The notes: generated by a model from the letters alone, not told the origin. Positions 1,913-53,018 are shown, counted from the stretch's first letter. The stretch is 64,000 nucleotides of DNA from a bacterium (GCA_021800535.1 JAJYYV010000004.1:16007-80006); one strand, 5' to 3'. Made by a program: numbers and translations.

Positions 1913-2191
1913 TTATTTGATAAATTTTTCATACATTTCTATTAATTCTTTGACTTTTTCTTTTATCTGTTTGTCTTTCTTTGATTCTATAGTTTCCTTT
2001 ACACAGGTATTTATATGATTTTCAAGTATAACAGAAGCAATACTTTTTAATGCTCCCTGAGTGGCAGAAATCTGTTGAAGGATATCCATACAATATTCTT
2101 TTTTTTCCACCATTTTCAAAACACCTCTAATCTGTCCTTCTACTCTTTTTATTCTCGGTTTTAATATTTTAATGGTTTTTTCATTAATCAT
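1913..2191 (-). CDS. CsoR/RcnR/FrmR-family metal-sensing transcriptional repressor
   Basis: 92 aa. Family signature ...YCMDILQQISATQGAL...HINTCV (Cys-His-Cys metal ligands, DUF156 fold). Upstream of the YHS/OMF/MFP genes. Confidence 0.8.
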   Translation of the reverse strand: MINEKTIKILKPRIKRVEGQIRGVLKMVEKKEYCMDILQQISATQGALKSIASVILENHINTCVKETIESKKDKQIKEKVKELIEMYEKFIK

Positions 2192-2198
2192 TTTTTCA

Positions 2199-2217
2199 GT
2201 ATACTACCTACCAGTAT
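2199..2217. promoter_or_regulatory. candidate CsoR operator/promoter palindrome
   Basis: TATACTACCTACCAGTATA, an imperfect inverted repeat (TATACT...AGTATA), lies 8 bp upstream of the CsoR start. Confidence 0.3.
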
Positions 2218-2370
2218 TTTTGTCAAATAATTTTTTAGAAATCTTTTTTAGTTGTTAAATTAATATATGAAGTTTTTTAGAAAATTTGTGATTATTCTTT
2301 TGACTTTTTTTATTTCATTTTTTCTTTTTTGAAAATTATTTAATGCCTATTTTTTGCGGAATTTGGGAAA

Positions 2371-2429
2371 TTGTATGCCAGCGTCCATATCCATTTTCCC
2401 TGTATCGCATACTTATGGGTTGGTCTGTT
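2371..2429 (-). repeat. RHS core relic (57-bp fragment)
   Basis: 55/57 nt identical to 10395..10451, which encodes ...QPISMRYRENGYVRWHT of RHS copy B. It is intergenic and has no ORF context. Confidence 0.6.
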
Positions 2430-2435
2430 TTGTTG

Positions 2436-2867
2436 TTAAATAAACTTACTAAAAAATTGACACATTTTTTCTAAATTTTCTTTTTGATTAGATGGCATAA
2501 TTCTAAAAATTCCAATTTTTATTTTTGGAATTTTTATTATATGTGGCTCAGAATATTTTTTAAGTTTGATATAAAAAATTTTAGCAGTTAAAAAATTCTT
2601 GATATCTATTTTTTCTATTTCAGAAAAATCTATAGATGTTAATCTATCAAAAGAATAATATGATGAAATTTCTGCTATTAATAAACGTTGATTAGTTAAT
2701 CCAATCAAAAAATTTCTTACAGGAACAGTTTGTCCAGTTTGTGACAAAATATTTTGTAAAATATAGTTCCAAAAAGAAAAATATTCTAAACCTAAAACAT
2801 ACGAATTTAGAGTTTCTTGTTGATTTAAACATTTTGAAAATTCTTCTTTTATAACTTCGTCTGTCAT
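2436..2867 (-). CDS. hypothetical protein
   Basis: 143-aa ORF downstream of the propeller gene. No recognisable motif. Confidence 0.35.
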   Translation of the reverse strand: MTDEVIKEEFSKCLNQQETLNSYVLGLEYFSFWNYILQNILSQTGQTVPVRNFLIGLTNQRLLIAEISSYYSFDRLTSIDFSEIEKIDIKNFLTAKIFYIKLKKYSEPHIIKIPKIKIGIFRIMPSNQKENLEKMCQFFSKFI

Positions 2868-2879
2868 TTTATATTTTGA

Positions 2880-4358
2880 TTATTTTATAAAATTATTCCC
2901 TACAGTAACAAATATATTATTTCCATATGTAATTCCATTGAGTACATTAGGTATTCTTAAATTTTGCTTTGTCCATTTTATTCCATTTAAAGAAGTTATA
3001 ATTACGCCATATGGGTTTTGTTCAATAATCTGATATGCTCCTCCTACTGCCACAAATTTTCCATCACCATATGTGATACTGTTAAGTATGCTAATAATTG
3101 GTAAATTTTGTTTTTGCCAAGTTTTTCCATTATAAGAAGTTAGAATCGTATCTCCAACAGCTACAAATTTACCACCCCCGTATGTAATAGCAAAAAGATT
3201 GTTAGATATTCCTGAATTTCTATTTATCCATTTTTTCCCGTTAACAGAGGTAATAATTATACCATAAGAATTTCCCATACTTGGACTATAGTTTCCTCCA
3301 ACAGCTATAAATTCATTATTTCCATATGTTATTCCTCGAATAGAATTAATTGTTTTAGAATTTTGTTTAACCCAATTTTTTCCATTAGAAGAAGTAAGAA
3401 TTGTTCCATTATCTCCCACTGCAACAAATTTTTTCTTTCCATATGTGATCCCATTAAGTTGATAATTTATACCAGAATTTTGTTTAACCCAATTTTTTCC
3501 ATTAGAAGAAGTAAGAATTGTTCCATTATCTCCCACTGCAACAAATTTTTTCTTTCCATATACTATTCCGTTAAGCCAAGCAATTGTTCCAGAATTTTGT
3601 TTTATCCAATTTTTTCCATTAGAAGAAGTTAAAATTGCATTTCCAACGGCTACAAATTCCTCATTCCCATATGTAATTGCAGAAAAACTATTAGATATTT
3701 CTGAACTCCTATTTATCCATATGACTCCATTTGAAGAACTTAAAATTGGTGTTAAAATACTTCTTTGGAATTTTTGTTTTTTTAATGGAAGTAAAATTTT
3801 AAATAAGAAAATTAACAAGATAATAATAATGAAAATGCTTAATATAATTCCTATGATTTTTTTAAAATTAAAAGGTTTGATTTTACTCGTAATTGGACTA
3901 TTGAATAATTTTTTTAATTTTAATTTTTCTCCAATAAATCCACCTAATATACCAAAGGGAATAACCAAAAAAAGGGATAATTTAATATAAAAAATATGAG
4001 GAATACTATTCAATGGAAATATCACCGGTAAAGATTCTATCAAAAACAAAAGAATAACAACTACTGCAACAAATTTTGTACCACCTTTTCCTACTATATA
4101 TCCCATAATAAACATGCCTATAAATGTAGGTATAATAGATTCTCCAATCAAACTTAACTTAAGTAATTTATTATAATAATTGAATAAACTCATTGTATAA
4201 TATGTGCTTGATAATTTATTTGATAAATTTGTAATTATAAATTTATCATAAATTGAAAATATAATATTTCTAACGAAATAGCCTATAAAAAAAGCGAAAA
4301 TTCCAATTTTGATTTTATATTTATCTAATATTTTACTTTTAAATAAAGTTAGTTTCAT
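2880..4358 (-). CDS. polytopic-membrane-anchored Asp-box/BNR-like beta-propeller protein
   Basis: N-terminal ~190 aa with 4-5 hydrophobic helices. Then 7 repeats with a 39-aa period: ITYGxxKFVAVGxxGTILTSSNGKNWxKQNSG. The S-x-[DN]-G-x-x-W core is Asp-box like. Confidence 0.7.
   Translation of the reverse strand: MKLTLFKSKILDKYKIKIGIFAFFIGYFVRNIIFSIYDKFIITNLSNKLSSTYYTMSLFNYYNKLLKLSLIGESIIPTFIGMFIMGYIVGKGGTKFVAVVVILLFLIESLPVIFPLNSIPHIFYIKLSLFLVIPFGILGGFIGEKLKLKKLFNSPITSKIKPFNFKKIIGIILSIFIIIILLIFLFKILLPLKKQKFQRSILTPILSSSNGVIWINRSSEISNSFSAITYGNEEFVAVGNAILTSSNGKNWIKQNSGTIAWLNGIVYGKKKFVAVGDNGTILTSSNGKNWVKQNSGINYQLNGITYGKKKFVAVGDNGTILTSSNGKNWVKQNSKTINSIRGITYGNNEFIAVGGNYSPSMGNSYGIIITSVNGKKWINRNSGISNNLFAITYGGGKFVAVGDTILTSYNGKTWQKQNLPIISILNSITYGDGKFVAVGGAYQIIEQNPYGVIITSLNGIKWTKQNLRIPNVLNGITYGNNIFVTVGNNFIK
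3361..3594. repeat. 117-bp tandem duplication (2 copies, 84 nt perfect) inside the propeller gene
   Basis: 3361..3444 is identical to 3478..3561. Period 117 nt = one 39-aa blade (GKKKFVAVGDNGTILTSSNGKNWVKQNS). Confidence 0.85.
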
Positions 4359-4372
4359 TATTTTAATAAAAA

Positions 4373-5299
4373 CTAAAATTTAGCAACTATACCCCACCAC
4401 CATGGCGGAAATGGAATTTGATTTGTTGAACATTGGTATGGGCCAGGTGGTCCTCGCCTATAAAGTGCCCATATTTTACAAGTATCTAAATTAGCTATAG
4501 CTCGACCTTTACAAGCAATAAGTTGAGGTTTCTGCCACCAATGTGAATAGGAAGATTCACATTGACTTATTTGTAAATGATACATTTCATAACATAAATT
4601 TAATCTTATAGATTTCATTCCTGTGGGATCTCTATAATTTATTGGATTATTTCTTTCCACTATGTATAGATTGTTAAGTAAAGAAGAAATAGGTAAAATT
4701 AGAGTTTTTTGATATAGAATAGAGGCAGGTGTGAAAGAAGATAATAAATTTAATTTCATTATTTGAAGCATTGCTATGTAAGTATATATATTCTCAGAAT
4801 TGATTGGGAGTGCTGAAATTGTAGAATTCTCACTCTCTCCCCCACATCCGCATCCTGAATTTCCGTTTGCAGATGGTAAGTTGTTTCCTGTGGCATATTC
4901 TGGCACTTCCCTCAAAAGTGGGTCTACTTCAAGGAAACGGCCAAGAGACGGAGATTGATAGCGGGCACGGAAATAGTAAAGATTACTTTCTCTGTCATAT
5001 TCTCTTCCTTGGTAAGTAATTGTGTTGGTAAAGCCGTTTTCTCTATTAAAAGGTAGTCCCACTCCTATGTTTTCGCCCTCTCTATTCATCATCTCTCCAA
5101 AAGGTAGGTAATTATAACTGGCTATGACTTGCCCCCTTGAATTTGTTAGTTGTCTCACATTTCCTTCTCCATCATAGAGGTAATAAATTGTATGCCATCT
5201 TCCGTGTGTTCTGTATTCCATCTCTATTGGTTGGTATGTTGTGTCTCTGTAGGTGTATATTTTCTTTGCCCTCCCATATTTATTATACACTATAAACAC
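4373..5299 (-). CDS. RHS repeat-associated core + C-terminal tip D (orphan RHS C-terminal module)
   Basis: YLYDGEGNVRQLTNSRGQVIASYNYLPFGE...YQGREYDRESNLYYFRARYQSPSLGRFLEVDPL...NPINYRDPTG, then an 88-aa unrelated tail. The open frame continues upstream to a TAA at ~5405 (IHYNCDCGTKRVYKK...) with no ATG. Confidence 0.8.
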   Translation of the reverse strand: MFIVYNKYGRAKKIYTYRDTTYQPIEMEYRTHGRWHTIYYLYDGEGNVRQLTNSRGQVIASYNYLPFGEMMNREGENIGVGLPFNRENGFTNTITYQGREYDRESNLYYFRARYQSPSLGRFLEVDPLLREVPEYATGNNLPSANGNSGCGCGGESENSTISALPINSENIYTYIAMLQIMKLNLLSSFTPASILYQKTLILPISSLLNNLYIVERNNPINYRDPTGMKSIRLNLCYEMYHLQISQCESSYSHWWQKPQLIACKGRAIANLDTCKIWALYRRGPPGPYQCSTNQIPFPPWWWGIVAKF

Positions 5300-5419
5300 C
5301 TGGTCTATTCCATTTATTGTGTCAAAAAAGTATTGGCTTACTTTACCTCTTACATTTTTCTTATATACTCTTTTGGTCCCACAATCGCAGTTGTAATGAA
5401 TTTAATTTGATAAATATTT

Positions 5420-6538
5420 TTATTTTCGGGGTATCACAACAAATTCATTTTTCCCATATGTTATACCCCACAGCCAATCATTTATTTCAGAATTTTGTTT
5501 TTCCCAATGAATTCCATCTGAAGAAGTTAATATTGTTCCAAAATTTCCAACTACTACAAATTTTTTATTACCATAAATAATACCATTCAATTCATAAGTT
5601 GTTTTAGAATTTTGCTTTATCCATATTTTTCCATTAATAGATGTTATAATTGTGCCATGATTTCCTACAGCAATAAATTTTCCATTTCCATATGTAATAC
5701 TCCAAAGATAATGGAGTATACCAGATTTTTGTTTCTTCCAATGTATTCCATCGTAAGAGGTAAGAATTGTGCCAAAATCTCCTACAGCTATAAATTCTTT
5801 CTTCCCATATGTTATTCCTAAAAGAATTTTATTCATTACAAGATTTTGTTTTTCCCAATGAATTCCATCTGAGGAAATTAATATTGTGCCAGAATTTCCT
5901 ACTGCGACAAATTTTTTGTCTCCATATGTAATTCCATTTAATTCATAAATTGTTTTTAAATTATGTTTTCTCCATATTTTCCCATCAATAGATGTTAGAA
6001 CTATTCCATTATTTCCCACTGCAATAAAAATTTTATTTCCATATGTTATTCCGGAAAGACAATTATTTATTCCTGATCTCTGTTTTAACCATTTCTTGCT
6101 ATTATGAGAAGTGAGAATTATTCCATTTTGTCCAACTGTTACAAATTTATTGTCTCCATATGTAATACCACAAAGAAATTTATTTGTTCCTGAATTTTGT
6201 GTTTGCCATCTTATTCCGTCATAAGAGATTAAAATTGGAAGTATTTTGTTAGTATAAAAATAATTTTGTTTTGTATTCAGAAAAACATGCATTTTAAATA
6301 AAAAGAAAACTGAAATAATAATCAACAAAATTGTACAAAAAGAAAGAAATAAAAGAAATATAAATAATTGTTTCTTTTTTCTTTCTATAAAATAATATAA
6401 AATAAATCCTGCAATTATAAAACTAAAACCTATTATATTTAATGCAGACATTGGTTTACTTAAATAAAACATTATAAATAATCCAATAATAAAAAAGATG
6501 CCACTAATTAATATAGAAAAAATATTTTTTTTATTCAT
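5420..6538 (-). CDS. membrane-anchored Asp-box/BNR-like beta-propeller protein
   Basis: 3 N-terminal TM helices, then 7 repeats of 39 aa (ITYGxxKFVAVGxxGTILTSxDGIHWEKQN). The start overlaps the stop of the RHS module at 6531 by 8 nt. Confidence 0.7.
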   Translation of the reverse strand: MNKKNIFSILISGIFFIIGLFIMFYLSKPMSALNIIGFSFIIAGFILYYFIERKKKQLFIFLLFLSFCTILLIIISVFFLFKMHVFLNTKQNYFYTNKILPILISYDGIRWQTQNSGTNKFLCGITYGDNKFVTVGQNGIILTSHNSKKWLKQRSGINNCLSGITYGNKIFIAVGNNGIVLTSIDGKIWRKHNLKTIYELNGITYGDKKFVAVGNSGTILISSDGIHWEKQNLVMNKILLGITYGKKEFIAVGDFGTILTSYDGIHWKKQKSGILHYLWSITYGNGKFIAVGNHGTIITSINGKIWIKQNSKTTYELNGIIYGNKKFVVVGNFGTILTSSDGIHWEKQNSEINDWLWGITYGKNEFVVIPRK

Positions 6539-7142
6539 ACATAGGTGATGGTTGGCTATGATTTAAAAACCATTCCAGCGCTTTAGTAATAGCTGTTCCA
6601 GAAATACCGCTGCATTCTAATCCTGGTTTTACATTTTTGAACCATTCTTGATATTGGCAATGAGAAAGTTTTTCTGCATCTAAATTATTATAATTAATAG
6701 CTGTAGATATACATTTAAGGCATTGATAACCGACATATTCCAAATAAATAGACCCTGAAATTGTTGAAATCCATCCAAAATCTTCCCAACCAATACCTAT
6801 TATTTCTATTTGTTTACCTGTGGGATCTTTATAATTTATAGGGTTATTTTCCACAAATATATAAGAATTATTAATTGTAACAATTTTAAGTATTGGAGAT
6901 GTTATTTGTTGTGGTTTATTCATCATCTCTCCAAAAGGAAGGTAATTATAACTGGCTATGACTTGCCCCCTTGAATTTGTTAGTTGTCGGACATTTCCTT
7001 CTCCATCGTAGAGGTAGTATACTGTGTGCCAGCGTCCATATCCATTTTCCCTGTACTGTCGCATTTCTATTGGTTGGTCTGTTGTGTTTCCATATATGTA
7101 TATTTTCTTTGCCCTCCCATATTTATTATACACTATAAGCAT
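6531..7142 (-). CDS. RHS repeat-associated core (internally deleted) + C-terminal tip C
   Basis: Same conserved N-part (VYNKYGRAKKIY...YLYDGEGNVRQLTNSRGQVIASYNYLPFGEMMN) joined directly to ...NNPINYKDPTG, then a 95-aa unique tail. The frame is open upstream to a TGA at ~7252 (QYKTEIFRNCSCGTKRVYKK), which matches copy A. Confidence 0.8.
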   Translation of the reverse strand: MLIVYNKYGRAKKIYIYGNTTDQPIEMRQYRENGYGRWHTVYYLYDGEGNVRQLTNSRGQVIASYNYLPFGEMMNKPQQITSPILKIVTINNSYIFVENNPINYKDPTGKQIEIIGIGWEDFGWISTISGSIYLEYVGYQCLKCISTAINYNNLDAEKLSHCQYQEWFKNVKPGLECSGISGTAITKALEWFLNHSQPSPMYE

Positions 7143-7251
7143 TTGGTCTATCCCATTTATTGTGTCAAAGAAATATCGGCTTACTTTTCCTCTGACATTT
7201 TTCTTATATACTCTTTTTGTTCCACAGGAGCAGTTTCGGAATATTTCTGTT

Positions 7252-8067
7252 TTATATTGTCAATTCTTCATTATCTGCAGGGATATAATGAACAAAAGTG
7301 CCTACTTTTTTGTATAGTTTTTCTCTAAAAGATGCTATAGAATTGATTTTATCTAATTTTAACCATGTCAACCAACCGCAAAAAACTCCTATTTCTATTT
7401 TTAATAATAAGAAAAATTGTTCCTGTAAAAAAACGTATCCATTATTTTTTAAGTTAAGTAAAAGATATTCCCAAGAAGAAATACCGGTTAGATTTTCTAT
7501 AATAGTTCTTTTTGTTAAATAAGAATATGTACTACTATAAAAAATATAAGTTTTCCCACTAAAATATCCATTCCAAATGAAAAATATTATTAACCCTACA
7601 ATACTATAAAGTAATCTTTTCTTTCTTATTAAAAATCCTATTGCTAAAGCAAATATATAGCCATACCATAAAATAGAAAAAAAAGTCATCAAAGATTCAC
7701 TTATAGATGATATAGGAATATTAAAATCAAGCGTAATAATACCACTAAAATTTGCCCCTAAATCGCTACAAAAATTTATTAAACCTAATATTAAACTAAA
7801 TAAAAATATTTTTGTTTGTAATTGTTTTTCTGAAATAAAAAGATTTAAAACTATAGATCCACAAATAAAAGGAAGAAATTGTATTATTAATTCAAGTATT
7901 AGATAAACCACGAACAAAAAAAGAGACATAAAAGGAGGGCTTGTTAAAATTTGAGAAGTAAAAAACGAAGGTAGATGATAATTATTAATTAAGGATATAT
8001 ATATTATCTGTGAAATTAGAGTGGCAACGATTAAAGATAAAAAAACAGGGAAATATAATTTTTTCAT
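7252..8067 (-). CDS. polytopic membrane protein (6-7 TM), function unknown
   Basis: 271-aa hydrophobic ORF between propeller 3 and RHS module C. Its 3' end runs into the RHS repeat. Confidence 0.45.
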   Translation of the reverse strand: MKKLYFPVFLSLIVATLISQIIYISLINNYHLPSFFTSQILTSPPFMSLFLFVVYLILELIIQFLPFICGSIVLNLFISEKQLQTKIFLFSLILGLINFCSDLGANFSGIITLDFNIPISSISESLMTFFSILWYGYIFALAIGFLIRKKRLLYSIVGLIIFFIWNGYFSGKTYIFYSSTYSYLTKRTIIENLTGISSWEYLLLNLKNNGYVFLQEQFFLLLKIEIGVFCGWLTWLKLDKINSIASFREKLYKKVGTFVHYIPADNEELTI

Positions 8068-8402
8068 ATTATTTTATTTTTACCACCATGATGGTGCAAG
8101 AAGCTTACATACTTCTTCCTGAGAACGTCCAGCATTTAATAGCCAAAAAGATCTACTAATGGGAATACCTTTTTGTTTCCAAATTGTTTCATTTATTGGC
8201 ATAGTCCACTCATTACTAAAAGTTATTTTTCTATGAAACCCTTGGCATTTATTCCAACATAACCAAGCTGTTTCTCGGGCTTTTATAAGCCAACCTTTTC
8301 TACGAATTTCAGCAGTAAATTCACAAGAGTATAAAAAAGTAGCGCCGGCTTTTTCTATAGAAAGAGAATGAAATTTTACAAATGTTTTTCCTGAAAAAGT
8401 TT

Positions 8403-9449
8403 CTATTTTAGTTTGCTTATGTCATGGGATGTGATATATATACTTTTCCATATTTTTTCATTCTGAGAAGTAATAATTATTCCACAACGATGGTGTGTGG
8501 TGGTATTGTATCCCATACCAACTGCTACAAATTTTCCATCTCCATATGTTATTCCGGAAAAACTTGTCTGAGGAAATTTTATTTCTTTCCAATTAATCCC
8601 ATTAGAAGAAGTTAAAACTATTCCACCTCCTACAGCCACAAATTTTTTATCTCCATATGTTATTCCCCACAAATATGTTTTTGAACCACAACGACCGGGT
8701 TTTATTCCAAAATTTTGTTTTGTCCATGTTATTCCTCCATTTGAAGAAGTTAATATAGTACTATGTTTTCCCACTGCTACAAATTTTCCATCTCCATATG
8801 TTATCCCCCACAAAATATTATTATTTCGTCCAGAATATTTTTTTGTCCAAATTATTCCCTTAGTAGAACTAAAAATACTACTACCACTTCTCGGCCACAG
8901 ATCTCCTACAGCAACAAATTGGTTATCTCCATATGTTATTCCATAAAAAATGGAAGAGGTTTTAATATTGTATCCTATCCAAGTAATACCACTATTAGAA
9001 GAAATTAAAACTTTACCAAAACCAACTACTGCTACAAATTTATTATTTCCATATGCTATTGCAGAAATACCATAATGGCGCGTTGGAAAGTCTAATATTT
9101 TTAGTATTGGAATTTTTTGTTTTGACCAGTGTATCCCATCCGAAGAGGTAATAATTGTACCATATCCTCCAACAGCAACAAATTTTTTGTCTCCATATAC
9201 TATTCCGTTAAGAAATTGGTTTGTTTCAAAATTTTGTTTTGTCCATGTTATTCCATTGGTAGAGGTCAAAATTATACTTCTCATAGTTTTTTTAACATAA
9301 CTTCCAATCCATCCGATAGCAACAAATTGGTTATCTCCATATACTATTTTCGAAAGATTAACAGGCTTACAAAAAGCTGAATGTAAAAAACTAAAAATAA
9401 AAATACTTAAAATTAATTTATTCCAGATTCTAAATATACTTTTATTCAT
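8403..9449 (-). CDS. secreted Asp-box/BNR-like beta-propeller protein
   Basis: Signal peptide MNKSIFRIWNKLILSIFIFSFLHSAFC. Degenerate 39-44 aa repeats (ITYGDxKFVAVG...TSSNGxxW). Starts 12 nt after the stop of RHS module B. Confidence 0.7.
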   Translation of the reverse strand: MNKSIFRIWNKLILSIFIFSFLHSAFCKPVNLSKIVYGDNQFVAIGWIGSYVKKTMRSIILTSTNGITWTKQNFETNQFLNGIVYGDKKFVAVGGYGTIITSSDGIHWSKQKIPILKILDFPTRHYGISAIAYGNNKFVAVVGFGKVLISSNSGITWIGYNIKTSSIFYGITYGDNQFVAVGDLWPRSGSSIFSSTKGIIWTKKYSGRNNNILWGITYGDGKFVAVGKHSTILTSSNGGITWTKQNFGIKPGRCGSKTYLWGITYGDKKFVAVGGGIVLTSSNGINWKEIKFPQTSFSGITYGDGKFVAVGMGYNTTTHHRCGIIITSQNEKIWKSIYITSHDISKLK

Positions 9450-9460
9450 TTTTTTCTATT

Positions 9461-10510
9461 TTATTGAAAAGATTTAATAGGATTACCTCTACTGAGTGCC
9501 CAGTTAGATAAAAGATTATCTTGCTGGGTTATTAAATTAGCAAGTGCATCTTCATTTTCCACTGAAGGTTCTATTAAGTATTTTATTCCAGTAGAACATA
9601 GGGTGGCATCGTATGCTACATCACACACACTTAGTCTTTTATCGCATTCTCCCCGGGTTGGCCATGGAGGACTATAATTTATATTTGGATGTCTCTTTTG
9701 GGCCGCTTCACTGCAAATCTTATTTATGGCTTCATTTAGTGCTTCCTTACCAAGGTTTTTAAGTATGTTTTTATAGGTATTATATATATCGTTTATCCAA
9801 TCTGCCACTTGAGATGAAGGATTTGGAATTCTTTGTGCACCAGAACCAGATTGAAAACCAGTTGGATCATTATTGTTTATTGGATTATTATCACAATAAA
9901 TATAAGGATATTTCAATATATTAGGGAAGGTTGGTAGCATATTTTCAGGAGTATATAGAAAAACTGGTGGTACTGGAATTAAAAGCAAATTTAAAATATC
10001 AGGATTTTCTCTTGGTTCACCACCACCACAAATTGGACATCCACCTAATGAAGTAGTTGGAGATAAAATTATATTTTCTGTATATTCTGGCACCTCTCTT
10101 AACAGCGGGTCTACTTCAAGGAATCTACCTAATCTTAGGTCTTGGTATCTTGCTCTGTAGTAATATAATCCTGCGTCTCTGTCATATTCTCTTCCTTGGT
10201 AAGTGATTGTGTTGGTAAAGCCGTTTTCTCTACCCCAGTCTATTCCTTCTCCTTCGTTTCCCTGTATGCCTTGTCCCTCTCCTCCTCTATTCATCATTTC
10301 TCCAAATGGTAGGTAATTATAACTGGCTATGACTTGCCCCCTTGAATTTGTCAGTTGTCTCACATTCCCTTCTCCATCATAGAGGTAGTATACTGTATGC
10401 CAGCGTACATATCCATTTTCTCTGTATCGCATACTTATGGGTTGGTCTGTTGTGTCTCCGTAGGTGTATATTTTCTTTGCCCTCCCATATTTATTATACA
10501 CTATAAGCAC
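9461..10510 (-). CDS. RHS repeat-associated core + C-terminal tip B
   Basis: GTG-initiated ORF. The in-frame open stretch continues to ~10585 (SGTKRVYKKNVRGKVSQYFFDTINGIDQV...). It carries the core motifs, a ...DNNPINNNDPTG boundary and a 135-aa unique tail. Confidence 0.8.
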   Translation of the reverse strand: MLIVYNKYGRAKKIYTYGDTTDQPISMRYRENGYVRWHTVYYLYDGEGNVRQLTNSRGQVIASYNYLPFGEMMNRGGEGQGIQGNEGEGIDWGRENGFTNTITYQGREYDRDAGLYYYRARYQDLRLGRFLEVDPLLREVPEYTENIILSPTTSLGGCPICGGGEPRENPDILNLLLIPVPPVFLYTPENMLPTFPNILKYPYIYCDNNPINNNDPTGFQSGSGAQRIPNPSSQVADWINDIYNTYKNILKNLGKEALNEAINKICSEAAQKRHPNINYSPPWPTRGECDKRLSVCDVAYDATLCSTGIKYLIEPSVENEDALANLITQQDNLLSNWALSRGNPIKSFQ

Positions 10511-10593
10511 CTGGTCTATCCCATTTATTGTGTCAAAGAAATATTGGCTTACTTTTCCTCTTACATTTTTCTTATATACTCTCTTTGTTCCAC

Positions 10594-10652
10594 TTTATTC
10601 CATTTGGTGAAGTTAGAATTGTACCATTAGAGTCTACTGCTACAAATTTAGG
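10594..10652 (-). pseudogene. fragment of a beta-propeller blade fused upstream of RHS module B
   Basis: Minus-strand translation PKFVAVDSNGTILTSPNGIKW matches the blade consensus. It is out of frame with the RHS cassette and runs into it. Confidence 0.5.
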
Positions 10653-10657
10653 TAGAT

Positions 10658-10912
10658 TTACCCATTTTTATCAAAAATTTTAATCTTCCATTTTTTATGC
10701 AACCAATTTGCAATAATTATTAAAAATACCCCTAAAAAGCCTAATATTAACCCCAAATATCCTATTTTTACCAAATGTATATTTTTATATATTTGAGAAG
10801 GACTTAAACCTAGAATAAATATAGCACTAATAGTAATACCAATAGCGAATCCATAAATTGTACCTACTAAATAAACTTTTTTGGTATTATGTAAATCTGA
10901 TGAATTCTTCAT
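10658..10912 (-). CDS. small 2-TM membrane protein (candidate immunity protein for tip A)
   Basis: 84 aa with two hydrophobic helices, immediately downstream of RHS module A. Confidence 0.45.
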   Translation of the reverse strand: MKNSSDLHNTKKVYLVGTIYGFAIGITISAIFILGLSPSQIYKNIHLVKIGYLGLILGFLGVFLIIIANWLHKKWKIKIFDKNG

Positions 10913-10946
10913 TTTTTGATTTTTTATACAGCAAAATTAAAAAAAT

Positions 10947-12371
10947 TTATTCCTGCAATGGAGGATTATAATAATAAACTCCAGAGTTAACCCCACCTAA
11001 CCCACCACCTTCACTATTTCCACTATTCTTTATGCATTTTATTCCCCATTCTGTACATGATTGCTCTTCACATTCATGAAATGCTACAACAAGAGCTGTT
11101 ACATCAGATGCCCACATTTCAGGTCCTATCCATGGTATATTCCCTCCTGTTCTTTCTATCCACGCCAATATTCCATTAAGCACAACACTTCCCAAATTAA
11201 TCGATAAAGGTTTTGCAGTTAGAGCCAAAGCACAAGATCCTGCGCCAACATATCCCCAAATTTGCCAGTTATACTGATACTTTAAACAAACACTTTTATA
11301 ATGACCATTACAACACAAACCAGTAGGGTCTACATAATTTATAGGGTCATTATTTACGAAAATATAGGCAGGAGTGAAAATCGCATTGGAAGAAGGTGAA
11401 TAGTTATTTATTAAATTATTATTTTGATTGGTATTGCCACAGCATCCACATCCTGAATTTCCGTTTGCAGATGGCAAATTATTCTCTGTGGTGTAGGTAG
11501 GCACTTCTCTTAAAAGCGGGTCTACTTCAAGGAAACGGCCAAGTCTTGGGTCTTGGTATCTTGCTCTGTAGTAATATAATCCTGCGTCTCTGTCATATTC
11601 TCTTCCTTGATAAGTGATTGTATTTCTCATTCCGTTTTGTCCCCAGTTTTGCAGTCCACCGAAAGGTGTCCCGTCTCCTATGTTTTCGCCCTCTCCTGTG
11701 TCTTCTCCTTTATTCATCATCTCTCCAAATGGTAGGTAGTTGTATGTGGCTATGACTTGCCCCCTTGAATTTGTCCGTTGTCTCACATTCCCTTGCCCAT
11801 CATAGAGGTAATAAATTGTGTGCCAGCGGCCATATCCATTTTCCTTGTACTGTCGCATTTCTATTGGTTGGTCTGTTGTGTCTCCGTAGGTGTATATTTT
11901 CTTTGCCCTCCCATATTTATTATACACTATAAGCACCTGGTCTATCCCATTTATTGTGTCAAAGAAATATTGGCTTACTTTACCTCTTACATTTTTCTTA
12001 TATACTCTCTTTGTTCCACAATCGCAGTTATGGAATATCTCTGTTTTGTTGTTCGGGAACTCTATTTGGGTCAGTAGGTTATTGTAGTCATATGTATATG
12101 TTGTGGTGAATGTCCCGCAATTCTGATTTTCATTTCCGCCTATTTCTCCTTTTGTAATCTTAACCTGTTTTGTTGCTATATTCCCATTTGCGTCGTAGGT
12201 GTAGTTTGTTGTTGTTATTGGTATTGTTATCTGATTTCTTGGTGTATTGATTGTTTTTTCGTTTTGTTTCTGTATTAGTTGTTCCTGATTATTGTATGTA
12301 TATATTATTGTTTCTTCTGGCATTACACATTGCGTCATCAAAAATCTATGTGAATTCGCTTTGCTCCTCAA
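10947..12371 (-). CDS. N-terminally truncated RHS protein: YD repeats + core + C-terminal tip A
   Basis: YTYDANGNIATKQ, TYTYDYNNLLTQIEF, YLYDGQGNVRQRTNSRGQVIATYNYLPFGE, YQGREYDRDAGLYYYRARYQDPRLGRFLEVDPL and ...NDPINYVDPTGL, then a 135-aa tail. The frame opens at TTG directly after a stop. There is no RHS N-terminal shell. Confidence 0.85.
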   Translation of the reverse strand: MRSKANSHRFLMTQCVMPEETIIYTYNNQEQLIQKQNEKTINTPRNQITIPITTTNYTYDANGNIATKQVKITKGEIGGNENQNCGTFTTTYTYDYNNLLTQIEFPNNKTEIFHNCDCGTKRVYKKNVRGKVSQYFFDTINGIDQVLIVYNKYGRAKKIYTYGDTTDQPIEMRQYKENGYGRWHTIYYLYDGQGNVRQRTNSRGQVIATYNYLPFGEMMNKGEDTGEGENIGDGTPFGGLQNWGQNGMRNTITYQGREYDRDAGLYYYRARYQDPRLGRFLEVDPLLREVPTYTTENNLPSANGNSGCGCCGNTNQNNNLINNYSPSSNAIFTPAYIFVNNDPINYVDPTGLCCNGHYKSVCLKYQYNWQIWGYVGAGSCALALTAKPLSINLGSVVLNGILAWIERTGGNIPWIGPEMWASDVTALVVAFHECEEQSCTEWGIKCIKNSGNSEGGGLGGVNSGVYYYNPPLQE

Positions 12372-12378
12372 TGACTAT

Positions 12379-12405
12379 GAGGTGTTTTGTAATCTACAAA
12401 ACACC
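12379..12405. terminator. perfect 12-bp-stem hairpin between cysH and the RHS array
   Basis: AGGTGTTTTGTA atc TACAAAACACCT. It is followed by a T-run only on the plus strand, so it is a likely transcript boundary or processing hairpin. Confidence 0.4.
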
Positions 12406-12414
12406 TTGCTTTTA

Positions 12415-13116
12415 TTAAATCTTTGATTTTATAGGATGAAGTCCGCATTCCTTATTTTCTGGTGATTCCCACCACCATCGGCCAGCGCGAATATCTTCCC
12501 CCGGTTTAATTGCCCTGGTGCATGGAGCGCAACCAATACTTGGATATCCATTATCATGCAATTGATTATAAGGCACATTGTTTTTCTTTATATATTCCCA
12601 GACTTGTTGTTCTGACCAATCAGTAATTGGATTTATTTTTATTATTGAGTTATGGGCAATATCAATTTCAACTTTTTGTATATTTGTCCGGGTGACAGCT
12701 TGTTGTTTTCTTAAACCGCAAATCCATGCATCTAAATCTTTTAAAGCTCTGTTTAAAGGTTCAACTTTTCTAATGTTACAGCACAAATGTCTTAATTCAA
12801 TGCTCTTATAAAATAAATTAAACCCATATTCAGATATCATTTTTTCAATAGATGTTGTATCTGGATAATAAACATCCATAGTAATATTATATTTTTCTTT
12901 TATTTTATCCATAATATTATAAGTTTCCGGATGTAATCTTCCTGTATCAATGGTAAAAATTTTAATGGAAGGGGATGTTTTTGATATTATATCTATCAAA
13001 ACAACATCTTCTAATCCAAAACTTGATGCCAATGCGACTTTATTCTTGAATTTTTCACCTGCCCATTGAATTATTTCTTCTGCTTTTTTACTTTCCAATT
13101 CTTCAAATTTTTTCAT
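12415..13116 (-). CDS. cysH: phosphoadenosine phosphosulfate (PAPS/APS) reductase
   Basis: PAPS reductase fold (SFGLEDVVLIDI), C-terminal ECGLH motif and CxxC. Confidence 0.85.
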   Translation of the reverse strand: MKKFEELESKKAEEIIQWAGEKFKNKVALASSFGLEDVVLIDIISKTSPSIKIFTIDTGRLHPETYNIMDKIKEKYNITMDVYYPDTTSIEKMISEYGFNLFYKSIELRHLCCNIRKVEPLNRALKDLDAWICGLRKQQAVTRTNIQKVEIDIAHNSIIKINPITDWSEQQVWEYIKKNNVPYNQLHDNGYPSIGCAPCTRAIKPGEDIRAGRWWWESPENKECGLHPIKSKI

Positions 13117-33980: not shown

Positions 33981-34228
33981 TGAAGTATTATATATATGTA
34001 TTAAAAAGTACAGTTATTCAAAAGAGATATATTGGATATACATCAAAAGATCCTTGGAAACGATTAAAAGAACATAATCAGGGTGGTAATAAATGGACAA
34101 GAAGTGTTCGGCCTTTAGAATTAATTTATTATGAAACTTATGACACTTCTCAAGAAGCAAGAAAACGGGAAAAATTTCTCAAAACAGGTAGGGGCAGAGA
34201 GTTTCTTTCTAAAATAATTCCGGCGTAG
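33962..34228 (+). CDS. small GIY-YIG nuclease (YhbQ/UPF0213-like)
   Basis: KYYIYVLKS...YIGYTS...RLKEHN...RPLELIYYE...EARKREKFLK. Probable true start is GTG at 33980. The last codons are the 5' end of tRNA-Asn. Confidence 0.7.
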   Translation: MKRGASVKYYIYVLKSTVIQKRYIGYTSKDPWKRLKEHNQGGNKWTRSVRPLELIYYETYDTSQEARKREKFLKTGRGREFLSKIIPA

Positions 34229-34530
34229 CTCAATGGTAGAGCATCCGGCTGTACAATTGCAGCTTCCACAAGAAATTGTGGTTGAAAAATCAGGTGAATT
34301 CAGGGGAATCCATTTTTTTAATGGACAATCCTGAGCCAAGTTCTGAGTATATCTCAGAAAAGGTGCAGAGACTATCCCAGAAGGGAGTACTCTCCGTTTA
34401 TAACGGAGCGGAAGCGCCTGACACCTTATTTTCAAAACTTTGAAAAAAGGTGAAGATATAGTCCAAGCCTTAAAGTAATTTAGGGGCACTTGTAACCGGA
34501 GGGTTGTAGGTTCGAATCCTACCGCCGGAG
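34219..34530 (+). tRNA. tRNA-Asn (anticodon GUU) interrupted by a group I intron (exons 34219..34252 and 34493..34530)
   Basis: Acceptor TCCGGCG/CGCCGGA with discriminator G. D-arm GCTC-AATGGTA-GAGC. Anticodon stem TCCGG/CCGGA. Spliced loop CUGUUAA. T-arm GTAGG-TTCGAAT-CCTAC. Confidence 0.8.
34253..34492 (+). ncRNA. group I (IC3-like) self-splicing intron in the tRNA-Asn anticodon
   Basis: 5' exon ends in U. P1 pairs exon GGCUGU with IGS GCAGCU (34259..34264) and closes with U.G. P2 is CCACAA-GAAA-TTGTGG. GAGCCAAGTTCTG and AAGGTGCAGAGACTA closely match Azoarcus tRNA-Ile intron GAGCCAAGCUUCG / GAAGGUGUAGAGACUA. The intron ends in G. Confidence 0.8.
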
Positions 34531-34552
34531 CTATGAAGTTATACTTTGAAAG

Positions 34553-34653
34553 GTAGGATTCGAATAGAGCGAAGTAAGGGATTATGAGCGAGCGTAACAA
34601 TCCCAGCGAGTGGCCGACCCCAAGTGTAGTGAGAACGAGGGGCGCCGAATCCT
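34553..34653 (+). pseudogene. tRNA-Asn 3'-end duplicate (T-arm + acceptor) with a 79-nt insertion in the T-loop
   Basis: GTAGGATTCGAAT[...79 nt...]AATCCTACCGCCGGAG. The insertion is flanked by a CGAAT direct repeat. Confidence 0.5.
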
Positions 34654-41700: not shown

Positions 41701-43566
41701 TTATTTCCAGATAATACGATATGCAAAAACAGAATTCTTTTTTGCAGCAACCAAGAAATTAGCATTTATATTGGAATCTGCGAAATCAACATTTTTTCCC
41801 AGAGTATATGTCCATATATTTGTGTTATTTTTATTTGGAAAATAAAAATATTTATTCCAAACACCACAATCTGCAAGTAAATAGTTTTTTTGAAAAGAAA
41901 AAAGTGTGGCTTTTTCTCCTGCAACAAATTTAGATATGGATATTCCTTTATTATTATAAACAAAAACGCTATTATTTTGCGTTCCTATGGATATATATTT
42001 ATTATTTGAATGAAATAAAATTTTAGTGGCAGGACTTGCAGGATTTTTTTTCCATAAAAGATTTCCTTCATCACTATAAAGATAAAATTGCCCATTATAA
42101 CAGCTTACAGCTACCATTGAAGCATCAGGACTTATTTGAATATTTTCTATCCAGTCAGGTAATGTTTTTTTCCAGAATAGTGTGTCAGATTTATTTAAAT
42201 AATATATCTTTTTATTTAGTGCATATACCCAGAATTTACATTTTGAACTTATAGATATTCCTTCAATTTGATTGCCGAGTTGTTTGCTTAATATTATTCC
42301 ACTGTCTGTTGCAAGTGTTATTTTTCCATTTAAAGATGCCCAGGCATAATATTTTCCATCAGGGGAGACAGTAACTTTGGTTATTTCATCTGAGGATTTA
42401 TATATGTTTTTTATCCATCCTGAAGAGGAAAAAATATATACAGAACCATTCTTATAACCAACAATAATAGAAGAACCATTATTTGCCATTTTAAGAGCAG
42501 AAACCCAGTTTGATAGGTCCTGATAAGTATATGCCCATACATAAGAATCCACAGGTAAAAGATATGTGGCAGGTATAGATTCTTTTAAAAAATTATAACC
42601 AAATCTTTTAAAATATGTAGGAAGGAAATTATAGTTTGTCATTTTATATTGATAGGTTTCATAAGGGATCTTTTCCTCTTTTTTATATATATTAACCTGT
42701 AAAATATAATTGCTTTCTGCTTTATATAATATTGGCTCAATAATATAGTCAGCATTTAAAAGTTTTATTACTTTGGTTCTATCATCTCTATCACTTATAA
42801 TATTTGCCATTGTCAAATTATTTTCTTGAAGCATTTGGTTAATATCATTTTGCGAGATAATTTGATAATGTTTATTACTTAATATTAAGGGACTTATATT
42901 ATTTTTAAATAGTTCATTTATATTGGAAAAAAAGTTGGGAACATTCACGGTTTTTATGTCCAGTATAAGTATTTTTTGAGGTTTAAGTATTGCTTTTAAA
43001 ATTCTTATTCTTCTGTTTATCTGCCAGATTGATGGGGCTTGACCATAGAAATCTTTCATTAAAATATCTTCTTTTAGTTGTTGATAAACAGAAATAGCAG
43101 AGGTATATAATTTTTCTTCAGTCATAATTTCACCAAGTTTATAAAGATATCCGGCATCTGGAATTATGGATTCTGAAAGATATTTTTGAAAAAATAAAAT
43201 AGCCTGTTTGTTTCTATTATTATCAAGGGCATAATCCCCAAGAATTTTATAAATATAGGCTTGTGGAGTGGCATATTTAAGTATAGAAAGAGCCTGTGGG
43301 GTTCTTGGCCAGCCAGAGGGCCAATTTTTAGGGCCGAAAGGTCTGGACTGTAAAGTTATATCTTCTGCTTTTCTAAGAAATTGTTGCGCTGTTTTTATGT
43401 GCCCCTGAAGCTGGTTTTGGTGAGCTAATCTTATACACTGCCATACAGAAGGGGAAAATATTTGAGATAAATATTTATTCTGGGAATACCAATCAGCATG
43501 AGCAATCTGAGTAAAAAATACTATATTAAATAAACCAACAAATAAAATATAAAAAATTTTTTTCAT
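41701..43566 (-). CDS. secreted protein with TPR-like N-terminal region and C-terminal beta-propeller (PQQ/WD40-like) repeats
   Basis: Signal peptide. The C-terminal 300 aa has repeated ...DG...Y..S.DG.L.W... units. Confidence 0.45.
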   Translation of the reverse strand: MKKIFYILFVGLFNIVFFTQIAHADWYSQNKYLSQIFSPSVWQCIRLAHQNQLQGHIKTAQQFLRKAEDITLQSRPFGPKNWPSGWPRTPQALSILKYATPQAYIYKILGDYALDNNRNKQAILFFQKYLSESIIPDAGYLYKLGEIMTEEKLYTSAISVYQQLKEDILMKDFYGQAPSIWQINRRIRILKAILKPQKILILDIKTVNVPNFFSNINELFKNNISPLILSNKHYQIISQNDINQMLQENNLTMANIISDRDDRTKVIKLLNADYIIEPILYKAESNYILQVNIYKKEEKIPYETYQYKMTNYNFLPTYFKRFGYNFLKESIPATYLLPVDSYVWAYTYQDLSNWVSALKMANNGSSIIVGYKNGSVYIFSSSGWIKNIYKSSDEITKVTVSPDGKYYAWASLNGKITLATDSGIILSKQLGNQIEGISISSKCKFWVYALNKKIYYLNKSDTLFWKKTLPDWIENIQISPDASMVAVSCYNGQFYLYSDEGNLLWKKNPASPATKILFHSNNKYISIGTQNNSVFVYNNKGISISKFVAGEKATLFSFQKNYLLADCGVWNKYFYFPNKNNTNIWTYTLGKNVDFADSNINANFLVAAKKNSVFAYRIIWK

Positions 43567-51338: not shown

Positions 51339-53018
51339 TTAAAAGACGGATTTTGCCGGGGGTGGATTTTTAGAAGAATCATCATCTTTATTTTGGTCTT
51401 TTCTTTGTCTTTTTTCAGGCAGAGGTTCATTCTCTACATTTTCCAAGTTAGGATTTAAAACTGTAAAAGAAGATTCTTCCTTATGGATACAAATTGCCTG
51501 AAAAGTTTTTAATTTCATAAATATTTCAGGAGGGAATATTCTTTTGTTCACTACTTTTTCCATTATTGAATGTAGTCTGGAAAAAATTCTATCAACTATC
51601 GTTTGATGAGTTTTTTCTATTGCTTTATAAGTCCCTGCCATTTTGCTGAAAACTTCAGCTGTTTGAGGGTCATTGATTTTTAATATAATATGTGTATTGA
51701 TACCCTGTAAAATTTCTGAACGGATACCTATTTTATCTAAATTCCCTATTGATGAATAAGAAATAGTTAGCATAAATTTACTTCCTCTTGCTTTTTCAAG
51801 AAAATTTGTAAAAGATGGTGTTATAAAAGATTGACATTCATCAATAAAAATTCCCATATATTTTTGATCTGGATTTTGTAAAAATTCTTTATTTTGAATC
51901 TCTCCACTTATGGTTGTTAGGTCTTTAATTATTATTTTACCTAACATTTTTCCAATTTTTTCATAAGATTGTGTATCTAATGCAAAATATATAATTTTAT
52001 TATTTTGATAGGCATCAAGCAGATTTATTTCACCCTTGGGGGATTCAAAAAGAAAACCAAAATTTGAATGTATAATACGGGATAACCATGCTGTAAGTGA
52101 ACTTATATCCTTTGAGTGGTTTTTAAGAAAGAATGCAAGTTCAGGATATAAAGTTCTGTCTGGATTTTGTAATATTTTATAAACCTGTGAAAAGGTTAGT
52201 TTTTCTTTGGAGTGTTTTTCATGGTCATTAAATAAATTCTGTAAGGCAGTTTCACAAAGAGATATATAGTGCCTGGAATCTGTTTCTTTATATTCTGCCC
52301 AATCCATAGCTCCTATTATTTTATCTGTTAACTGGCTTGAATTACCAATCTCAAATGGATTATATGTGAATGACCTTTCTAACTCTGATAAGGAAAGAAT
52401 GTTATAATCTTTTTCTCTATTGTGTTTTCTTATAAGATAGGATATTTTTTTTATATTATCTAAATTGGCTTTTGCATCTATAAATATAAGAGGTCTTCCA
52501 TTTTTTATATCATCTTCAATTAATGGCTCAAGTACTGCTATAGTTTTTCCTGAGCCTGTTGAGCCTACGACCTGACAGTGAAGTAGTCTTTCTTGTTCAG
52601 ATACATAGAGAGGAGTAATATTTTTGAATGTTTGATGCCATGGGATAGGTATTTTACAACCTAAATAGGCTCCCAATTTTTTCTCTTCACCTTGTTTTAT
52701 AAATTTTTCCACAGGGATGTTTTTAGGGATTTTTATTTCATATTCATCTACTTGTTTTTTTAAATTATCCGGAGGTAGAAAATAATTTATTAATCCTGTT
52801 AGTAATAATACTGTCATAACAAAAATAAAAACATAGAGATAGGTTGTTGAAAGTCTTTCAAAATTATAAACAATTCTTGCAAATAAAATAGTAGATAAAA
52901 TAAATATTGTAAAAAGGTTGATTTTCTTTATTTTTGTTTTCCATAAATATTTTATAGAGTTTAGTAGAAATTCAAAAAAATTAGTTATAAATATAAATAT
53001 TAATTTTAATATTGTCAT
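51339..53018 (-). CDS. type IV coupling protein-like (TraD/TraG/VirD4-family) membrane ATPase
   Basis: 2 N-terminal TM helices. Walker A VVGSTGSGKT. Walker B MGIFIDECQSF. ~560 aa. Confidence 0.6.
   Translation of the reverse strand: MTILKLIFIFITNFFEFLLNSIKYLWKTKIKKINLFTIFILSTILFARIVYNFERLSTTYLYVFIFVMTVLLLTGLINYFLPPDNLKKQVDEYEIKIPKNIPVEKFIKQGEEKKLGAYLGCKIPIPWHQTFKNITPLYVSEQERLLHCQVVGSTGSGKTIAVLEPLIEDDIKNGRPLIFIDAKANLDNIKKISYLIRKHNREKDYNILSLSELERSFTYNPFEIGNSSQLTDKIIGAMDWAEYKETDSRHYISLCETALQNLFNDHEKHSKEKLTFSQVYKILQNPDRTLYPELAFFLKNHSKDISSLTAWLSRIIHSNFGFLFESPKGEINLLDAYQNNKIIYFALDTQSYEKIGKMLGKIIIKDLTTISGEIQNKEFLQNPDQKYMGIFIDECQSFITPSFTNFLEKARGSKFMLTISYSSIGNLDKIGIRSEILQGINTHIILKINDPQTAEVFSKMAGTYKAIEKTHQTIVDRIFSRLHSIMEKVVNKRIFPPEIFMKLKTFQAICIHKEESSFTVLNPNLENVENEPLPEKRQRKDQNKDDDSSKNPPPAKSVF

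Follow-up and report, generated by a model that had tools for sequence, protein, structure and literature searches.

Membrane-anchored seven-blade beta-propellers as candidate immunity proteins in an orphan RHS cassette array of Candidatus Omnitrophota

The genome of an uncultured Candidatus Omnitrophota bacterium, available as a metagenome-assembled genome (MAG), carries a tandem array of 5'-truncated RHS cassettes in which genes for membrane-anchored beta-propeller proteins stand directly downstream of the sequences coding for RHS tips. The array occupies positions 2369..12371, on the minus strand, of a 64,000-nt stretch of DNA (GCA_021800535.1 JAJYYV010000004.1:16007-80006) that was analysed over its whole length and is referred to here as the window. 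Each cassette contains an RHS core fragment, a DPxG motif and an unrelated Cys-rich tip of 81-131 aa, and the array is bordered by a PAPS reductase gene (12415..13116) on one side and by a CsoR/Cus-type copper efflux operon on the other. Since a TolC-like OEP, MurC and MurG are encoded within the 64-kb window, the host possesses an outer membrane, peptidoglycan and a periplasm. Matching copies of the locus were found in the NCBI MAG GCA_027425495.1, in one JGI assembly and in one ENA assembly. The G+C content is 0.24-0.28 in the propeller genes, 0.34-0.39 in the RHS core pieces and about 0.29-0.36 in the flanking housekeeping genes (window 2001..9500 scanned).

All RHS open reading frames (ORFs) in the window are 5'-truncated fragments, and no further RHS sequence is present in the 64 kb. 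Fragment A, the longest RHS ORF, comprises a few YD repeats, the RHS-associated core, DPTG and a 123-aa, Cys-rich and partly hydrophobic tip (5.7% Cys); it starts 7 nt beyond a hairpin and 43 nt beyond the PAPS reductase stop. Fragment B, homologous to A from about 10591-10600, ends with DPTG and a 131-aa tip containing 4 Cys, and fragment C, the core of which has an internal deletion, ends with DPTG and a 94-aa tip that also contains 4 Cys. Homology of fragment D to A begins at 5401, 18 nt past the propC stop (see below), and after its DPTG comes a tip of 81 aa that contains 5 Cys. Although fragment C scores under the TIGR03696 (Rhs_assc_core) cutoff, it is 90% identical to A across the shared core. 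The motif NNPINyxDPTG is invariant in all four fragments and the core DNA identity among cassettes is 87-95%, while beyond the motif the tips are unalignable. A fifth remnant of the RHS core, of about 27 codons, marks the decayed end of the array. Tandem duplication of whole cassettes was rejected as the origin of the array, since the tips are unalignable while both flanks stay similar.

The hairpin before fragment A is probably the terminator of the upstream gene, and the interval between the PAPS reductase stop and fragment A has no space for an RHS N-terminus or a promoter. A scan for promoters and terminators was uninformative in this AT-rich DNA, with 75 promoter-like sites against 63 expected in shuffled sequence. 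Over 11.4 kb, the sequences of three assemblies of the window species differ by one single-nucleotide polymorphism (SNP) only, a C-to-T change at window position 5131 in ENA ERZ27237044 by which the Gln57 codon of RHS fragment D becomes a stop and which leaves the propellers unaffected; as a single event, this nonsense SNP is an anecdote only.

Directly after the stops of RHS fragments D, C and B lie three minus-strand ORFs, here termed propD, propC and propB, in the places given by a preliminary description of the window. The distance from tip stop to propeller start is +14 nt in cassette D, -8 nt in cassette C, where the ATG overlaps the end of the tip, and +11 nt in cassette B; the 8-nt overlap and the 14-nt gap reported earlier were thus recovered, and the lower gap of 12 nt was not. 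On this strand a codon is a stop with a probability of 0.089, which puts the chance of 348-492 open codons at 1e-15 to 1e-20, so these ORFs are not products of chance. Each of the three proteins contains a sevenfold repeat, ITYGxxKFVAVG-loop-ILTSxDGxxW-loop, the basic period of which is 39 aa, as had been proposed, and the repeat scan and an AlphaFold2 (AF2) model of propC both returned seven blades. With pairwise identities of 45-54%, propB, propC and propD are paralogues of variable sequence. The preliminary description had recognised both properties and had also taken the blade number to vary; it is seven in all three, and variation is found instead in the membrane anchor, in the B-C and D-A loops and in the register at which the ring closes.

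The AF2 model of propC, built from a 35-sequence alignment, contains 28 strands that form a closed ring of seven four-stranded antiparallel blades (pLDDT 97-98), preceded by N-terminal membrane helices. In a Foldseek search of the PDB, the top match of this model was Ycf48 (E 2e-11, 15-16% identity), in keeping with the resemblance suggested previously, while a sequence profile search of the PDB returned nothing at E<=0.01. Among Pfam families, PF23366 (Beta-prop_HVO_0234) was matched by propC at 33.1 bits and by propD at 28.2 bits against a cutoff of 27, with no single stretch passing, no match of propB and only faint or weak precomputed matches; DUF6242 (PF19755, PF25852) remained sub-threshold at 17.6-23.3 bits against 29, and PF02012 (BNR) was matched by propB alone, again below its cutoff (17 bits, with 27 required). 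At the C-D turn, the blades show the sequence [TS]Sx[DN]GxxW. Like Ycf48/HCF136, the window proteins have seven blades, Asp-box-like turns, a predicted extracytoplasmic location and a membrane tether, and Ycf48 is a lumenal protein that binds peptide on one face. They differ from Ycf48/HCF136 in the identity of only 15-16%, in the absence of a match to PF14870 (PSII_BNR) and in the absence of any photosystem context.

Hydrophobicity scans located one N-terminal segment in propB, about three transmembrane (TM) segments in propC and about five in propD, in agreement with the earlier description of anchors of 3-5 TM helices or a signal peptide. No homology was detected in an all-against-all comparison of the membrane domains. 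A topology prediction, which the preliminary description had proposed, places the propellers of B, C and D and that of a six-TM relative in a second species outside the cytoplasm, facing the periplasm, according to the Lys/Arg counts of the loops and the positive-inside rule. The paralogues differ in the B-C and D-A loops, which in one blade or another are lengthened by as many as 10 inserted residues; conservation is seen in the A-B strands and at the Asp-box-like C-D turn. In four-stranded blades, the B-C and D-A loops form one face of the propeller, opposite the Asp-box turns.

Several features of the blades bear on their history. Blades 2 and 3 of propD have 89% identical DNA, propD contains a DNA repeat (3357..3637) with a 117-nt period and 89% matches, and propC contains one (5439..6208) with a 351-nt, that is three-blade, period and 75% matches. 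Between paralogues, the identity of blades with the same index is about equal to that of all-against-all comparisons, without positional orthology. Blade amplification at the DNA level has thus been recent, and the pattern suggests repeated re-amplification or concerted evolution. As for the ring closure, propC and propD appear to start with strands C-D and to end with A-B (a 2+2 'velcro'), as read from the sequence and, for propC only, from AF2, and propB and the second-species propeller P0057 appear by the same sequence reading to start with strand A and to end with strand D.

According to the preliminary description, only three of the four tips were followed by a propeller. Propeller sequence was found after all four. 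An 84-aa ORF behind tip A is interpreted as what is left of a decayed propeller gene, namely its membrane-anchor stub, and immediately behind this ORF, in another frame, lies a remnant of a single blade (KFVAVDSNGTILTSPNGIKW), right before the RHS start of cassette B. Given the two-TM stub and the blade remnant after tip A, all four cassettes once had a membrane-anchored propeller, one of which has decayed. Two further proteins are encoded by the last genes of cassettes B and D. The former, of 271 aa, is a polytopic membrane protein without a match in Pfam or PADLOC, and RHS homology of cassette C starts at the stop codon of its gene; the latter is a soluble bPH_3 protein, and the 3' end of its gene shares 14 nt with the fifth RHS remnant. 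A PADLOC search over all proteins of the cassettes gave no match. The features of the array are listed in Table 1.

Table 1 Positions of RHS fragments, propeller genes and associated features in the window
Feature	Position	Strand	Evidence or remark
Fifth RHS core remnant, about 27 codons	2369..2449	-	95% DNA identity to matching part of cassette B (tblastn with RHS A)
143-aa soluble bPH_3 protein, 12 nt after propD, last gene of cassette D	2436..2867	-	PF14470, E 8.6e-5, 23.4 bits vs cutoff 23
propD, 492 aa, about 5 TM helices and seven-blade propeller	2880..4358	-	Repeat and hydrophobicity scans
RHS fragment D, 308 aa; tip 4376..4618	4373..5299	-	TIGR03696 E 4.7e-13
propC, 372 aa, 3 TM helices and regular 7 x 39 aa propeller	5420..6538	-	AF2, Foldseek
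RHS fragment C, 203 aa; tip 6534..6815	6531..7142	-	Homology to A from 7253
271-aa polytopic membrane protein, about 7 hydrophobic segments, last gene of cassette B	7252..8067	-	Hydrophobicity
40-aa ORF, called by NCBI in the 335-nt spacer of cassette B	8080..8202	-	NCBI annotation
propB, 348 aa, signal peptide or N-terminal anchor and seven-blade propeller	8403..9449	-	Long loop insertions in five blades
RHS fragment B, 349 aa; tip 9464..9856	9461..10510	-	TIGR03696 E 1.2e-11
Frameshifted single-blade remnant, KFVAVDSNGTILTSPNGIKWNKESI*	10575..10652	-	tblastn with propC, 54% over 26 aa
84-aa ORF, two TM segments, 34 nt after tip A stop	10658..10912	-	Hydrophobicity, ORF analysis
RHS fragment A, 474 aa, 5'-truncated; tip 10950..11318	10947..12371	-	PF05593; TIGR03696 E 4.3e-17
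Hairpin, 14-bp stem	12378..12408	.	Between PAPS reductase stop (12415) and first codon of RHS A (12371)

The boundaries of the cassettes are tight: in tblastn comparisons, RHS homology resumes as soon as the blade remnant of cassette A ends, and it follows the last genes of cassettes B and C at a distance of 0-20 nt. The same order of genes recurs in a second Omnitrophota species (GCA_023484085.1, GCA_023380855.1), which encodes P0138, the closest RHS relative, with a core 70% identical and a new Cys-rich tip of 108 aa (6.5% Cys). Only 25 nt after P0138 lies the gene of P0057, a seven-blade propeller anchored by six TM segments and 52% identical to propC, which is followed by another truncated RHS fragment (L026 2541..2876, cut off after about 110 codons) and then by unrelated HTH and shikimate-pathway genes, a neighbourhood unlike that of the window. 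In the upstream cassette of this species, RHS homology after a gene for a 150-aa protein starts at CSCGTKRVYKK, and the left boundary CxCGTKRVYKK is common to both species.

The propeller family as such is huge, with 1699 matches at E<1e-5, and related propellers (29-48% identity) at 22 GTDB and 79 metagenome loci were found to have no RHS gene within flanks of at most 10 kb. Nearly all of these relatives have a signal peptide only, and the genes tightly linked upstream of them encode TonB-dependent receptor, TPR, DUF3015, DUF4116 and FliJ proteins. A multi-TM anchor was found in P0057 only among the 120 best database matches. The wide occurrence without RHS that the preliminary description had raised as an objection was therefore observed for the family, the members of which stand beside no RHS in the 101 loci, and not for the multi-TM form, which was found only beside RHS. 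Taken together, the tight restarts of RHS homology, the recurrence in a second species, the absence of RHS from the 101 other loci and the exclusive multi-TM anchor of P0057 give us high confidence that the linkage between tips and propellers is real and that the propellers belong to the RHS cassettes rather than being bystanders. On the same evidence, the earlier suggestion that the propellers are cargo on which RHS fragments had landed is disfavoured. The possibility that each propeller is the N-terminal part of the next RHS protein, as in teneurin or TcB, was rejected because each propeller gene has its own stop codon; such a fusion is also ruled out by the RHS homology after the propellers, which begins only in the last part of the core, by the first cassette, which has no preceding propeller, and by propD, which is trailed by a mere 27-codon RHS remnant.

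The tips themselves are distinctive in composition. Cys makes up 3.1-6.5% of their residues, compared with 0.9% for 17 housekeeping proteins encoded in the window. Of the five tips, B, C and D are not hydrophobic (max KD19 0.63-0.92), and tip A and tip X, the latter being the tip of the second-species protein P0138, contain moderately hydrophobic stretches (1.37-1.48). A Pfam search at E<=1 on the five tips yielded nothing meaningful. Modelled alone with AF2, tip B gave a low-confidence helical bundle (pLDDT 66) on which the models disagree, and Foldseek found no match to it better than E 0.85. A scan of metagenomes with an RHS-core alignment found no relative.

Judged by its sequence, the anatomy of the locus is that of an orphan toxin-immunity cassette array, because the cassettes begin directly after the blade remnant or 0-20 nt after the last gene of the preceding cassette. 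Orphan RHS/CdiA arrays of Proteobacteria (PMC3482391) likewise consist of tandem 3' core fragments with DPxG, a polymorphic tip and, closely linked behind it, a further gene, and in them, too, high DNA identity is confined to the core and is sharply lost at the tip. Unlike those arrays, the present one occurs in Omnitrophota and has no full-length RHS at its head; the array-heading gene, with an N-terminal delivery domain and a complete YD shell, is absent from the 64-kb window, although it may be located at another place in the genome. Moreover, its downstream genes encode envelope-anchored and mutually homologous propellers of 348-492 aa, whereas those of the Proteobacterial arrays encode small, usually cytoplasmic proteins. 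What is new here is a lineage-specific and unusual class of candidate immunity genes inside known RHS orphan toxin-immunity cassettes, not a new kind of system.

Precedents for propeller-like immunity proteins are few. Beta-propellers were not found among the immunity proteins of polymorphic toxins by Zhang et al. in 2012 (PMC3482391), and the lack of precedent asserted in the preliminary description is correct for that survey; it has since been overtaken by PefE of Proteus mirabilis, a predicted beta-propeller that was shown to give immunity to the PAAR effector PefD (PMC5714391) and is the one predicted case that the literature searches found to have been reported after the survey. Tsi1 of Pseudomonas aeruginosa is a periplasmic partial-propeller immunity protein against Tse1 (PMC3391265). 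These were the only propeller-like immunity cases found in the literature, where nothing was found on RHS immunity in Omnitrophota. In the PefD-PefE pair, as in the window, a gene for a predicted propeller lies directly downstream of that for a disulfide-rich toxin; the specificity residues of PefE lie on one face, and an orphan pefE2 adjoins an rhs fragment. PefE differs in its size of 320 aa and in that the available sections of its report mention no membrane anchor, and PefD differs as a PAAR protein with a putative nuclease tip. Tsi1 resembles what is proposed here as a periplasmic beta-sheet protein that neutralises a periplasm-acting toxin, but it is a small three-sheet fragment with neither a closed seven-blade ring nor Asp-box-like repeats, and Tse1 is an amidase of the type VI secretion system. 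In a third case, the two-TM inner-membrane protein Tsi5 confers immunity to the pore-forming RHS tip Tse5-CT (PMC9637101). Tsi5 is an integral inner-membrane protein that acts against an RHS tip, and in this it is comparable to the TM anchors described here and to the proteins of 84, 150 and 271 aa; it differs from the propeller proteins in having no periplasmic domain. Every downstream protein examined here has membrane segments; tips B, C and D, moreover, are not hydrophobic.

The propeller proteins may be viewed as candidate immunity partners of the tips, a reading to which we assign a probability of roughly one half. A cassette comprises a 3' piece of the RHS core, DPxG with an unrelated tip, and a downstream gene, taken to be cognate, for an envelope protein. 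The latter combines a variable N-terminal anchor (a signal peptide or 2, 3, 5 or 6 TM segments) with a conserved, Ycf48-like, seven-blade propeller that is predicted to be periplasmic. The disulfide-rich tip would act outside the cytoplasm, where the membrane-tethered propeller could capture it through the variable face formed by the B-C and D-A loops. As all RHS pieces are 5'-truncated, the array today would most likely be a store of silent tips together with standing immunity genes. Immunity is the most economical functional reading because the propeller genes occupy the immunity position of a mobile cassette, their products are predicted to face the periplasm, in which a disulfide-rich tip would be active, and vary on one face, and the genes are intact while the toxin fragments are truncated. 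In a bolder version, which we consider doubtful, the single repeat scaffold would be an adaptable, almost antibody-like immunity receptor for unrelated disulfide-rich periplasmic RHS toxins in Omnitrophota, with membrane-tethered propellers rebuilt through blade amplification and loop insertion.

Several observations weigh against an immunity role of the propellers. The tips are mutually unalignable, yet the propellers are 45-54% identical, and to our knowledge immunity proteins cognate to unrelated toxins are usually unrelated themselves; the least conserved part of the proteins is the membrane domain, not the propeller. The arrangement of tip and propeller is present in only two species, another Omnitrophota RHS gene is followed by an ordinary small ORF, and in the second species the preceding cassette has its downstream slot filled by the 150-aa protein, which has four TM segments and no propeller (L108 184..636). 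Within the window, the 271-aa protein is an alternative or additional immunity candidate, and the bPH_3 protein could be an additional immunity or accessory gene. As to the toxins, tip C has zero homologues among 5.8 billion proteins, and tip B has two marginal matches and no real homologue among 1.84 billion cluster representatives. Neither the 64-kb window nor the 5.8 billion proteins yielded a full-length RHS of this lineage, and this absence, together with the hairpin 7 nt before fragment A and the nonsense change in fragment D, raises the prospect that the tips are never made.

The composition of the cassettes also accommodates immunity of another sort, in which the variable polytopic membrane domain carries the specificity, as in Tsi5 or in the immunity proteins of pore-forming colicins, and the propeller is a generic periplasmic module that anchors, senses or stabilises and takes no part in tip recognition. 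The anchors are mutually non-homologous and vary in TM number (signal peptide, 2, 3, 5, 6) in parallel with the unrelated tips, while the propellers are conserved at 45-54%; propeller-less polytopic proteins occur in cassettes (the 84-aa stub, the 271-aa protein and the four-TM, 150-aa protein of the second species), tips A and X contain moderately hydrophobic stretches, and Tse5/Tsi5 provides a precedent of a two-TM immunity protein against an RHS tip. We nevertheless regard this explanation as unlikely, given that tips B, C and D, which are those with intact propellers, are not hydrophobic (max KD19 <1), that propB has a single anchor or a signal peptide only, that a generic module would not need the strong divergence of loops on one face, and that TM anchors evolve fast anyway.

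Less probable still is that the propeller serves the toxin, either as an accessory that the tip needs in order to fold, mature its disulfides, become active or be exported, or as a targeting or receptor-binding lectin. In described orphan arrays of RHS and contact-dependent inhibition (CDI) genes, a cassette holds toxin and immunity genes, and accessory genes stay with the full-length gene. A polytopic inner-membrane anchor would be ill-suited to a secreted targeting lectin, and the propeller ORFs are intact while the RHS ORFs are truncated, one of them with a nonsense SNP, a pattern that fits immunity genes and not helpers of an unmade toxin. These points are set against the nearest fold, Ycf48, being a peptide-binding assembly factor, against the reported pairing of propeller lectins with polymorphic toxins in Streptomyces umbrella toxin particles, and against the reports that PefD is inactive when PefE is lost and that Tli activates its lipase (PMC5714391). 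An absence of any functional link, with envelope propeller paralogues lying amid decaying RHS debris or the whole island being a relic, seems very improbable to us. It would be in line with the 1699-match propeller family, normally unrelated to toxins, with the fragmentary state of every RHS piece, with consensus promoters no commoner than in shuffled sequence and with the decay of the propeller in cassette A, but it is at odds with the recurrence of the tip-propeller-RHS order at another locus in a second species, the tight cassette boundaries, the multi-TM architecture beside RHS only and the intactness of ORFs of 348-492 codons, for which chance amounts to 1e-15 or less.

Elsewhere in the window, a tRNA-Asn(GUU) gene at 34219..34531 (plus strand) has its anticodon loop split by a 240-nt group I intron (Rfam RF00028, 100.7 bits at 34243..34485); the tRNA was found by ARAGORN with introns allowed and was missed by default ARAGORN. 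Because this intron-split gene occupies the site, a 159-aa ORF at 34121..34600 (minus strand) is probably spurious. At 41701..46223 (minus strand), the gene for a WD40-type propeller protein of 621 aa overlaps by 4 nt that for an 886-aa protein named 'HEAT repeat protein'; both adjoin MurC and MurG, and neither protein is related to the RHS-linked propellers. A 559-aa protein encoded at 51339..53018 (minus strand) has a TraG-D_C (coupling-protein-like) domain (E 1.9e-10) and may have been left behind by a conjugative or secretion element.

In summary, tandem RHS cassettes with unrelated Cys-rich tips and membrane-anchored, seven-blade propellers are present in two Omnitrophota species. If the propellers are protective, they would constitute a new class of large, membrane-anchored, periplasm-facing immunity proteins, in which a single repeat scaffold could be retargeted to unrelated toxins, and such genes would escape annotation pipelines that seek small downstream ORFs. 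The five orphan Cys-rich tips are candidates for new toxin folds acting in the cell envelope. Omnitrophota are tiny, uncultured and possibly predatory bacteria, and the cassettes, if this reading is true, would offer a first handle on interbacterial conflict in this group.

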